A DNA stretch of 64,000 bases from Escherichia coli (GTDB taxonomy: Bacteria; Pseudomonadota; Gammaproteobacteria; Enterobacterales; Enterobacteriaceae): NCBI RefSeq assembly GCF_003019035.1, contig NZ_CP027447.1, one strand, 5' to 3'. The number at the start of each line of letters is the position of its first letter. The stretch's first letter is position 1. Position numbers and translations under genes: made by a program. Under the pieces are notes generated by a model, which worked only from the letters and a program-made list of their open reading frames with translations, was not told the DNA's origin and searched no databases. Below are positions 34,935 to 40,463 of this stretch, one piece after another.

Positions 34935-35825
34935 ATGAACATGAAAAAACTGGCTACCCTGGTTTCCGCTGTTGCGCTAAGCGCCACCGTCAGTGCGAAT
35001 GCGATGGCAAAAGATACCATCGCGCTGGTGGTCTCCACGCTTAACAACCCGTTCTTTGTATCGCTGAAAGATGGCGCGCAGAAAGAGGCGGATAAACTTG
35101 GCTATAACCTGGTGGTGCTGGACTCCCAGAACAACCCGGCGAAAGAGCTGGCGAACGTGCAGGACTTAACCGTTCGCGGCACCAAAATTCTGCTGATTAA
35201 CCCGACCGACTCCGACGCAGTGGGTAATGCTGTGAAGATGGCTAACCAGGCGAACATCCCGGTTATCACTCTTGACCGCCAGGCAACGAAAGGTGAAGTG
35301 GTGAGCCACATTGCTTCTGATAACGTACTGGGCGGCAAAATCGCCGGTGATTACATCGCGAAGAAAGCGGGTGAAGGTGCCAAAGTTATCGAGCTGCAAG
35401 GCATTGCCGGTACATCTGCAGCCCGTGAACGTGGCGAAGGCTTCCAGCAGGCTGTTGCTGCTCACAAGTTTAATGTTCTTGCCAGCCAGCCAGCAGATTT
35501 TGATCGCACTAAAGGTTTGAACGTAATGCAGAACCTGTTGACCGCACATCCGGATGTTCAGGCTGTATTCGCGCAGAATGATGAAATGGCGCTGGGCGCG
35601 CTGCGCGCACTGCAAACTGCCGGTAAATCGGATGTGATGGTCGTCGGATTTGACGGTACACCGGATGGCGAAAAAGCGGTGAATGATGGCAAACTAGCAG
35701 CGACTATCGCTCAGCTACCCGATCAGATTGGCGCGAAAGGCGTCGAAACCGCAGATAAAGTGCTGAAAGGCGAGAAAGTTCAGGCTAAGTATCCGGTTGA
35801 TCTGAAACTGGTTGTTAAGCAGTAG
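34935..35825 (+). CDS. rbsB: periplasmic ribose-binding protein
   Basis: ORF 34929..35825 (TTG) trimmed to the ATG at 34935 ([28 protein letters not shown]...). Confidence 0.95.
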
Positions 35826-35950
35826 TTTTAATCAGGTTGTATGACCTGATGGTGACATAAATACGTCATCGACAGATGAACGTGTAATATAAAGAAAAGC
35901 AGGGCACGCGCCACCCTAACACGGTGGCGCATTTTATGGACATCCCGAAT

Positions 35951-36883: not shown

Positions 36884-37876
36884 TTGGCTACAATGAAAGA
36901 TGTTGCCCGCCTGGCGGGCGTTTCTACCTCAACAGTTTCTCACGTTATCAATAAAGATCGCTTCGTCAGTGAAGCGATTACTGCCAAAGTTGAAGCGGCG
37001 ATTAAAGAACTCAATTACGCGCCATCAGCTCTGGCGCGTAGCCTCAAACTCAATCAAACACATACCATTGGCATGTTGATCACTGCCAGTACCAATCCTT
37101 TCTATTCAGAACTGGTGCGTGGCGTTGAACGCAGCTGCTTCGAACGCGGTTATAGTCTCGTCCTTTGCAATACCGAAGGCGATGAACAGCGGATGAATCG
37201 CAATCTGGAAACGCTGATGCAAAAACGCGTTGATGGCTTGCTGTTACTGTGCACCGAAACGCATCAGCCTTCGCGTGAAATCATGCAACGTTATCCGACA
37301 GTGCCTACTGTGATGATGGACTGGGCTCCGTTCGATGGCGACAGCGATCTTATTCAGGATAACTCGTTGCTGGGCGGAGACTTAGCAACGCAATATCTGA
37401 TCGATAAAGGTCATACCCGTATCGCCTGTATTACCGGTCCGCTGGATAAAACTCCGGCGCGCCTGCGGTTGGAAGGTTATCGGGCGGCGATGAAACGTGC
37501 GGGTCTCAACATTCCTGATGGCTATGAAGTCACTGGTGATTTTGAATTTAACGGCGGGTTTGACGCCATGCGCCAACTGTTATCACATCCGCTGCGTCCT
37601 CAGGCCGTCTTTACCGGAAATGACGCTATGGCTGTTGGCGTTTACCAGGCGCTGTATCAGGCAGAGTTACAGGTTCCGCAGGATATCGCGGTGATTGGCT
37701 ATGACGATATCGAACTGGCAAGCTTTATGACGCCACCATTAACCACTATCCATCAACCGAAAGATGAACTGGGGGAGCTGGCGATTGATGTACTCATCCA
37801 TCGGATAACCCAACCGACCCTTCAGCAACAACGATTACAACTTACTCCGATTCTGATGGAACGCGGTTCGGCTTAG
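36884..37876 (+). CDS. rbsR: LacI-family ribose operon repressor
   Basis: 330 aa ORF with N-terminal helix-turn-helix ([32 protein letters not shown]...). Confidence 0.96.
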
Positions 37877-39269
37877 ATTTACGCTGTCTTTTGATCAAAT
37901 TATTACCATCGGTTGTTTTCAGAAGCATGAACATTGCTGCTGAAGCAACAGTAATAATGCCCATCGTGATAAACGTATAGTGGAATTGTTCGACAGTCGT
38001 TGTGCCTTCCATCCCTTCATAAACGCGAAGGACGGCCGCACTTACAGCAACGCCTAAACTGATAGACAGTTGCTGCGTGACCGCCAGAACACTGTTACCG
38101 CTGCTGGCGTTGTCATCGGTCAGATCGGCAAGTGTGATGGTATTCATCGCGGTAAATTGCGTCGACATAGCCATCCCTAATATAAACAACGGCAAGATCA
38201 GCATCCATATCGCCATTGCCGGTGATTGCAAAGAGAACTGAGCGATCATTAGCCCAATAATCACCGTGATCCCAACTAACGTATGGCGATAGCCCAGACG
38301 ACGTAAGACTTGGGTAACCATCGATTTTGCAATAATGGAACCTAACGCTGTCGGTGCCATCATACAGCCGGCAATAAACGCCTGATAACCAAATCCTACC
38401 TGTAACATCAATGGCATAAGGAACGGTACACAACCGGTCCCCAGACGGGTTGCAATATTGCCTACGATACCGATCGAGAAAGTGCGGGTTTTAAATAAAT
38501 CTAATGAAATTAATGGGTTTGGCGTGCGTCGTGCATGGAGAATATAGAGAAGCAGTAACCCGATGCTGGTGACAATTACCGTCAAGGCAATCCAACTGGC
38601 GACAATCTTTTCCCCAAATAGCTCTATTCCGCTTGAGAAGAGAACAAGGCTAAGGCCAAACAGCAAAAAGCCAGTGATATCGAATCTGCGTCGTGCGGTG
38701 GTGAAATTGGGCATATGTTTGCGCGCGTAAAGAAGGCCCGCAATACCTATGGGGATATTGATTAAAAATATCCAGTGCCAGGTTGCCCAGGTGACCAGCA
38801 CGCCGCCAAGAACGGGGCCTAAAATTGGCCCCACCAGACCCGGCATGGCGACAAAATTCAATACAGGAAGAAGCTCATTACGAGGATAAGCGCGCAGTAA
38901 GGCCAGCCGAGCAACAGGCATCATCATTGCGCCGCCTATCCCCTGAATAACCCGGAAGACAACCAGCTGTGGTAGCGAGTTAGAAAGTGCGCAGGCCAGA
39001 GAACCCAACGTGAACAGACTCACGGCAAGGGTAAATATGCGACGCGTACCGAAGCGATCGGCTAGCCATCCGCTTACCGGAATAAGCATCGCCACCGTCA
39101 GCGTATAACTGATGATGGCTGATTGCATCGCGAGAGGAGAACGATTAAGGCTATGAGCGATTGCGGGTAAGGCGGTATTCAGAATAGTGGCATCAAGTGC
39201 CTGCATGAAGAAGGCCATCGCCGCGATCCACGGCAAACCCGCCATACTGCGCTTCTTTTTATCGCTCAT
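37842..39269 (-). CDS. hsrA: MFS efflux transporter HsrA (YieO)
   Basis: 475 aa 14-TMS-type MFS ORF; convergent with rbsR with a 35-nt 3' overlap. Confidence 0.9.
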
Positions 39270-39291: not shown

Positions 39292-39984
39292 TCACTTATC
39301 AGGTGAGCGTAGCAGCGCCTGACAAGCTTTAAATGCCGCGTCGCCATCGCTTTGGATAATCGCGTCAACAATCGCCTGGTGCAGATCCAGCTTTATCACT
39401 GTGTCGCTGGTAATTGACGTGAAGTAAGTGTGATAAACCGAATGGAATAGCGAGGCGAATGAGGTCAAAAACGGATTGGCGCTCATTTCATAGATATGCT
39501 CATGCCAGGCCATATCGACTTCGATCCAGCGTTCACGGCGAAAGTTCTCTTTTAATGCCGCCATTTCGGCCATTAACGTATTGAGATGCGCCTTCTGTTC
39601 CGCGGTGCCAACCGTTGCTGCCAGTAGGCAAGCTTGCGGCTCCAGACAGATACGCATAACCAGAAAGTGATCGATGACCTGATGAAAGTTCTCTTCTGTC
39701 ATCCACCAGGTAAGCAATTCCTGATCAAGAAAATTCCAGTTTGATTGTGGCATGACCCGGGTACCAATTCGCGGTCGCGGTAAAACCATCCCTTTTGCCG
39801 TTAACGTTTTGACCGCTTCGCGTACCGCTGTACGACTCACTCCAAATTGCTCGCCCAGCTCAATCTCACCAGGCAAAATGGTGCCGGGTTCATATTCACC
39901 TTTTAAGATGCGTTGCGCCAGCTTCTCAGCCAGAACATACGAAAGGTTTTTCTGTGCAGCTAACTGTTGTGCGCTTAAAGGCAT
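39292..39984 (-). CDS. yieP: GntR/FadR-family transcriptional regulator YieP
   Basis: 230 aa ORF with N-terminal winged helix-turn-helix (…GEIELGEQFGVSRTAVREAVKTL…). Confidence 0.9.
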   Translation of the reverse strand: MPLSAQQLAAQKNLSYVLAEKLAQRILKGEYEPGTILPGEIELGEQFGVSRTAVREAVKTLTAKGMVLPRPRIGTRVMPQSNWNFLDQELLTWWMTEENFHQVIDHFLVMRICLEPQACLLAATVGTAEQKAHLNTLMAEMAALKENFRRERWIEVDMAWHEHIYEMSANPFLTSFASLFHSVYHTYFTSITSDTVIKLDLHQAIVDAIIQSDGDAAFKACQALLRSPDK

Positions 39985-40135
39985 TACTAATCTTCCTTTT
40001 TCTTTTTATTCCTCCTTAGTATGCCACCAGGAAGTGTGATTACGGTTGCAAAAAAGGCAAATTGCTTGTTTTATGGCACATTAACGGGGCTTTTGCTGAA
40101 AAAATGCGCGGTCAGAAAATTATTTTAAATTTCCT

Positions 40136-40163
40136 CTTGTCAGGCCGGAATAACTCCCTATAA
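40136..40163 (+). promoter_or_regulatory. rrn P1 promoter (-35 ttgtca, -10 tataat) with upstream AT-rich UP element
   Basis: ttgtca at 40136..40141 and tataat at 40158..40163 with 16-bp spacing; aaaattattttaaatttcct upstream. Confidence 0.85.
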
Positions 40164-40254
40164 TGCGCCACCACTGACACGGAACAACGGCAAACACGCC
40201 GCCGGGTCAGCGGGGTTCTCCTGAGAATCTCAACAGAGAAAAGCAAAAAAATGC

Positions 40255-40282
40255 TTGACTCTGTAGCGGGAAAGCGTATTAT
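40255..40282 (+). promoter_or_regulatory. rrn P2 promoter (-35 ttgact, -10 tattat)
   Basis: ttgact at 40255..40260 and tattat at 40277..40282. Confidence 0.8.
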
Positions 40283-40463
40283 GCACACCCCGCGCCGCTG
40301 AGAAAAAGCGAAGCGGCACTGCTCTTTAACAATTTATCAGACAATCTGTGTGGGCACTCGAAGATACGGATTCTTAACGTCGCAAGACGAAAAATGAATA
40401 CCAAGTCTCAAGAGTGAACACGTAATTCATTACGAAGTTTAATTCTTTGAGCATCAAACTTTT

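Follow-up and report, generated by a model that had tools for sequence, protein, structure and literature searches.

Gene order and geometry of the overlap

The window analysed here, a stretch of 64,000 nucleotides of Escherichia coli DNA (contig NZ_CP027447.1), carries rbsR, which encodes the ribose repressor, and hsrA, which encodes a transporter, as convergent neighbours; their coding sequences run into each other at the 3' ends. The genes and features at the junction are as follows.

36884..37876, + strand: rbsR coding sequence, LacI-family ribose operon repressor of 330 aa, with its stop TAG at 37874-37876 (open reading frame list and RefSeq)
37842..39269, - strand: hsrA coding sequence, DHA2-type MFS transporter of 475 aa, with its stop TAA at 37844-37842 (seen as 'tta' on the + strand)
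37842..37876: convergent overlap of the rbsR and hsrA coding sequences, 35 nt tail to tail (from the sequence)
37845..37874, - strand: C-terminal tail of HsrA, residues 466-475, lineage-specific and antisense to the last codons of rbsR
39292..39984, - strand: yieP, a FadR/GntR-family regulator (open reading frame list and annotation)

Both products are recognised by their family profiles. RbsR scores 697.2 bits against the NCBIfam equivalog NF007743 (cut-off 531), with a match over residues 1-330 of 330, and contains the Pfam LacI and Peripla_BP domains. HsrA reaches 458.6 bits against NF007799 (cut-off 426) and 264.9 against TIGR00711 (cut-off 230.2), and is also matched by Pfam MFS_1; the NF007799 match spans residues 13-465, so that the last 10 residues of the protein fall beyond the family profile.

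The sequence-only reading had described a tail-to-tail overlap of 35 nt at 37842-37876 that leaves no room for a terminator between rbsR and hsrA. According to our analysis both statements are correct: the coordinates agree exactly with the open reading frame list, the sequence and RefSeq, there is no intergenic space at all, and the terminator scans and folds given below are negative. The two stops also lie where that reading had put them, since homology, RefSeq and thousands of genomes agree on their positions, and the pair thus consists of two genuine opposite-strand genes with common 3' coding nucleotides. The codon registers of the sequence place the overlap in phase (123:132) for rbsR:hsrA (nomenclature of PMC2174442), in which the wobble sites of rbsR face the second codon positions of hsrA. 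On the other side of hsrA, yieP and hsrA form an operon with yieP as its first and hsrA as its second gene (PMC11340327), and transcription of this operon heads into rbsR.

A word on nomenclature may be useful here, as in most E. coli genomes PGAP labels the HsrA protein 'multidrug transporter subunit MdtD', by way of the NF007799 subfamily model, while its K-12 name is HsrA. However, mdtD is properly the name of another gene, a member of the mdtABCD operon, and the use of both names for one protein can mislead.

Occurrence in Escherichia coli

The same arrangement is found in nearly all complete genomes of the species. In the RefSeq annotation of K-12 MG1655 rbsR occupies 3938227..3939219 (+) and hsrA 3939185..3940612 (-), which gives an identical 35-nt overlap, and RefSeq annotates the matching strain in the same way; the offset between window and MG1655 coordinates is 3,901,343 and was verified. 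Between 36800 and 39400 the window differs from MG1655 by 34 substitutions and zero indels, with none of the substitutions inside the overlap. A 2.6-kb query was 100% identical to strain SCU-301. Of 5426 complete E. coli genomes, 5424 had a match to this query and 5401 contained 80% or more of it, and a 141-nt query covering the junction was found with at least 95% identity in 5393/5426.

The rbsR-hsrA overlap is therefore already known, both from the standard E. coli annotation and from a published catalogue of excludons. What is new in this analysis is the evolutionary origin of the overlap, the footprint of dual coding in rbsR, and the connection with a published region of Rho termination.

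The junction across Enterobacteriaceae

With each species represented by a single genome, a scan yielded 80 Enterobacteriaceae loci where hsrA and rbsR lie next to each other in convergent orientation. Both stops were located at each locus, the stop calls being anchored on the conserved KDGxNLI motif, and 83 sequences were classified in all. Their junctions span from a 3-nt gap up to a 53-nt overlap.

35-nt overlap, n=37: Escherichia, Salmonella, Citrobacter, Enterobacter, Leclercia, Intestinirhabdus
4-nt overlap, n=26: many genera, including the basal Buttiauxella, Franconibacter and Siccibacter
2-nt gap, n=7: Kluyvera, Phytobacter
9-nt overlap, n=6: Kosakonia
53-nt overlap, n=5: Lelliottia, Huaxiibacter
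24-nt overlap, n=1: Kosakonia oryzendophytica
3-nt gap, n=1: an Enterobacteriaceae MAG (UBA3516)

None of the 80 species has intergenic terminator space between the two genes. The RbsR C-terminus reads ...LTPxLxxRGS(A/V) before the stop throughout and its length is constant, except in the 53-nt class where RbsR is longer, and it is the HsrA tail that varies. Species with short overlaps end HsrA as ...KDGRNLIKERHK(x) directly before the stop; those of the 35-nt class add about 10 extra residues (KPxxxPSExE, then the stop). The 53-nt class (five Lelliottia and Huaxiibacter loci: L030, L033, L034, L036, L044) corresponds to the 35-nt state with a lost rbsR stop, which has changed from TAG to TCG, by which RbsR gains six residues and ends in ...RGSVSAGGDL.

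These data also bear on the most trivial explanation, namely that an error in sequencing or in the setting of a frame has misplaced one of the two stops and that the genes do not truly overlap. We consider such an annotation artefact refuted by the sequence and population data, to the point of practical certainty, and found no point in its support: homology secures the two frames up to at most 10 residues from their ends, the identical sequence recurs in thousands of independent genomes, and the hsrA stop is kept as TAA or TGA at the same position in 42/42 distinct long-overlap sequences.

Some records in the collection deserve a separate remark. The record L035 (CACSKA010000004.1), titled Chryseobacterium sp. 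18061, bears an Enterobacteriaceae rbsR-hsrA locus with an HsrA 86% identical to that of E. coli, and this locus is near-identical to that of L027, 'Citrobacter sp. 18056'; the L035 assembly is probably mislabelled or contaminated. Several records named 'Enterobacter sp.', as well as 'Escherichia sp. ESNIH1', group apart from the genera whose names they carry.

Proposed origin of the 35-nt overlap

In the 4-nt class both stops lie within one tetramer of the junction DNA, TTAA, CTAA or TTAG, and such a double-stop tetramer is a well-known arrangement (PMC2174442). The His codon is separated from the stop of rbsR by 5 (or 8) bases in the 4-nt species as against 4 (or 10) in the 35-nt species, and because of this difference in base count the ancestral hsrA stop is out of frame in the 35-nt class. 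The stop that the latter class uses is TAA (TGA in two species), which is the complement of the rbsR Leu-Thr codons CTT/CTC-ACT.

From these observations we propose the following course of events. Throughout the Enterobacteriaceae rbsR and hsrA have been packed stop to stop, and the ancestral state was likely the 4-nt shared-stop tetramer (TTAA/CTAA). A frame change of 1 nt just past the hsrA codons for ...ERHK would then have bypassed the old stop in the Escherichia/Salmonella/Citrobacter and Enterobacter lineages, and the HsrA reading would have run on for about 10 codons, on the strand opposite the final rbsR codons, to give the overlap of 35 nt. In random sequence a run of 10 codons before the next stop has a probability of about (61/64)^10 = 0.6, and for this reason an overlap of this length is unremarkable once the frame of hsrA has changed near its end.

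A neighbour-joining tree of both proteins, rooted on Buttiauxella and drawn without support values, places the short overlaps basally and the long ones in two clades, Escherichia-Salmonella-Citrobacter and Enterobacter-Leclercia-Lelliottia, with short-overlap genera (Kluyvera, Raoultella, Pluralibacter and others) sitting between them. The separation of the two long-overlap clades implies either one origin with a later reversal or two origins.

The proposed route can be compared with what has been described for convergent overlaps as a class. There are 58 convergent CDS overlaps in E. coli, with intrinsic terminators predicted for 20% of the genes involved (Lillo & Krakauer 2007, PMC2174442); change of a stop codon is the chief origin of such overlaps, and (123:132) is their commonest phase under 50 bp (PMC2174442). 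The rbsR-hsrA pair resembles this class in the opposite strands, the 3' overlap of less than 50 bp, the phase (123:132), the bypass of a stop and the relatives with a 4-nt TTAA/CTAA junction, and, as judged by these class features and not by name, it would count among the 58 (PMC2174442). It is unlike the class only in the route, as its stop was bypassed by a frame change and not by a point mutation of the stop.

Evidence of selection on the shared coding sequence

In the phase (123:132) the wobble sites of rbsR are paired with second codon positions of hsrA, and one would therefore expect any selection that acts on the HsrA tail to freeze synonymous sites in rbsR. Such a footprint is present. 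In long-overlap species (40 sequences) the rbsR codons of the overlap have a normalised synonymous-codon entropy of 0.31 vs 0.67 at the 133 other codons (Mann-Whitney p = 5e-4), and the overlap is the lowest-entropy of 134 sliding windows of the gene. The same rbsR codons have values of 0.61 vs 0.69 elsewhere in short-overlap species (41 sequences, p = 0.14), and the paired difference between the classes is greater inside the overlap (p = 0.017); the sequences compared are phylogenetically related, and the control is an internal one (other codons of the same sequences) and not a formal phylogenetic codon model.

The constraint can be followed to particular codons of rbsR.

Leu codon: CTT/CTC in 40/40 long-overlap species, as against six Leu codons in the short-overlap species; the restricted choice preserves the hsrA stop
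Thr codon: ACT in 39/40 long-overlap species; preserves the terminal Glu of HsrA
Ser codon: TCG in 36/40 long-overlap species; preserves a Pro in HsrA

With the hsrA stop conserved and the rbsR entropy low, both frames of the overlap are selectively maintained. Judging from these sequence comparisons, the two frames both appear to be translated, and some purifying selection appears to act on the HsrA tail; this selection on the extra tail would make the synonymous sites of rbsR as unusually conserved as they are.

Transcript ends around the junction

Two consensus scans, which covered several hundred nt around the junction, were negative on both strands for a hairpin and T-run resembling a terminator, and a bidirectional intrinsic terminator, recognisable as a G+C-rich hairpin with an A-run on one side and a T-run on the other, is absent from the junction itself. 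The 161-nt junction folds no better than its shuffles on both strands (z = -0.65 and -1.04), and a scan of the junction against Rfam returned zero families even at E<=1. Because there is neither intergenic space nor a junction terminator, each of the two transcripts must end inside the other gene.

The idea of a cryptic bidirectional intrinsic terminator, hidden within the overlapping coding sequence and ending both transcripts at the junction, draws on the fact that intrinsic terminators are predicted inside coding sequence in 23/116 convergent overlapping E. coli genes (PMC2174442). At rbsR-hsrA, however, scans and folds gave nothing above chance on either strand, Term-seq gives no + strand 3' end at the junction, and the - strand end is sensitive to bicyclomycin, i.e. 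Rho-dependent, and located some 260 nt further on. We thus regard a hidden terminator at this place as very improbable.

The - strand end comes from the work of Adams et al. 2021, in which DirectRNA-seq was performed with and without bicyclomycin (BCM) (PMC7815308). A Rho termination region on the - strand, annotated as 'antisense rbsR', is reported at MG1655 3938923, i.e. at window position 37580, with a Rho score of 2.78 and p 7.6e-6 (PMC7815308, Supplementary file 2); the underlying evidence is a single dataset of modest read depth (102/32 against 164/143), and the 800-nt windows make its resolution low. By coordinate conversion this region lies inside rbsR, 262 nt past the hsrA stop. The composition profile of the hsrA-strand RNA adds one further feature just upstream of it.

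37602..37721, - strand: candidate Rho loading region, inferred from C-rich, G-poor RNA

In this stretch, 120-240 nt after the hsrA stop, C makes up 0.30-0.34 of the RNA and the C/G ratio rises to 1.6, values that are modest and have similar counterparts elsewhere. The stretch is compatible with a Rho loading site and is not strong evidence for one.

Termination of mRNAs by Rho within antisense regions of neighbouring genes was reportedly described by Peters et al. in 2012. The hsrA-strand signal is like the cases of Rho antisense termination in PMC7815308 in being BCM-sensitive, designated 'antisense rbsR', positioned after the stop codon and situated just past a modest C-rich stretch; it is unlike them in being weak and without a precise 3' end, and in having a partner strand without a mapped terminator. 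On these published data the yieP-hsrA mRNA is terminated by Rho once it has run a few hundred nt antisense to rbsR, and by extension we infer that the rbsR mRNA would be ended by Rho inside antisense hsrA. On the + strand the tables of PMC7815308, for LB and glucose media, list no Term-seq 3' ends between 36982 (in rbsR) and 40348 (the rrnC leader); the rbs operon is little expressed in the LB and glucose media sampled. The SMRT-Cappable-seq supplements have zero entries for rbsR or hsrA.

Three further features of the region deserve mention. Near the start of rbsR (codons ~25-33), window 36957-36982 contains a perfect 8-bp hairpin, ATCGCTTC-loop-GAAGCGAT, and a + strand Term-seq 3' end maps 4 nt beyond it (MG1655 3938325, window 36982), followed by a further Rho termination region at window 37044 (PMC7815308). 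Read on the - strand, the same hairpin is next to a T-rich run and scores as terminator-like. It may be a site inside rbsR at which transcripts of the rbs operon end prematurely, and it could possibly also stop read-through from the hsrA strand. Between rbsB and rbsK the K-12 annotation has the sRNA RbsZ, at window 35702-35935 (+) (MG1655 3937045-3937278), with a strong Term-seq 3' end at 35935; Rfam had no match for RbsZ in the scanned range. Finally, Rfam RF02849 (Yersinia sRNA Ysr197) has a full-length match at 40092-40342 (+) with 89.7 bits and E 8e-21, the gathering score of the family being 167. The match lies upstream of the 16S rRNA gene, in the promoter/leader region of rrnC, and on the strength of this position the 'sRNA' family probably models the leader of an rRNA operon.

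Possible regulatory coupling

The concept of the convergent excludon has its paradigm in Listeria. In E. coli the rbsR-hsrA pair is among the 165 convergent excludons of MG1655, found in at least 50% of 58 transcriptomes (ExcludonFinder 2025, PMC12288877, Table 1). Like other members of that explicit list (PMC12288877), it consists of neighbouring convergent units with overlapping transcripts. The mutually exclusive expression and RNase III processing that define an excludon belong to the known excludons, and rbsR-hsrA is likened to them by transcript overlap alone. The listing is no evidence of regulation, because overlap of the coding sequences makes overlap of the transcripts unavoidable.

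The proposal that convergent transcription couples the expression of rbsR and hsrA, which had already been raised by the sequence-only reading and is implicit in the ExcludonFinder listing (PMC12288877), is plausible, though we would give it only a slender chance. In its fuller form it says that the locus is a functional convergent excludon in which rbs and yieP-hsrA are mutually antagonistic through collision of RNA polymerases and/or cleavage of the duplex by RNase III, so that ribose regulation would be linked to YieP/HsrA efflux. The membership of the pair in the MG1655 'excludome' (PMC12288877) speaks for this, as do transcription of the hsrA strand at least about 260 nt into antisense rbsR before Rho acts (PMC7815308) and the terminator-less stop-to-stop packing, which is kept in 80/80 species. 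However, overlap of the transcripts follows automatically once the coding sequences overlap, and the extent of the overlap shifts freely among genera, from -3 to +53 nt, as expected of a neutral junction. The Rho region at 37044 together with the Term-seq end at 36982 suggests that much of the rbs transcription stops short of the junction in LB. Full-text literature searches retrieved no paper that reports a phenotype of rbsR-hsrA, a dependence on RNase III or reciprocal expression of the two genes, and no functional link between the RbsR and HsrA products is known. On balance we hold a functional excludon to be unlikely.

A stronger version, to which we assign an even smaller chance, would have selection itself keeping rbsR and hsrA without a terminator spacer, mutual read-through tuning RbsR and HsrA reciprocally, and a part of the synonymous constraint on rbsR reflecting RNA pairing. 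If true, it would make the locus a conserved convergent excludon tying ribose/purine regulation to an efflux module.

The simpler reading, which we prefer, is that overlapping antisense 3' ends would be inevitable at a junction of this kind, and any effect on expression may be taken as a by-product until shown otherwise.

Conclusions

Taken together, the rbsR-hsrA junction is very probably an ordinary annotated convergent overlap of two real genes, at which a dedicated regulatory device is not evidenced. Were the coupling to prove true, the locus would be one further case for the excludon list. The significance of the finding is small, and we see the junction as a worked example of how convergent overlaps arise and persist.
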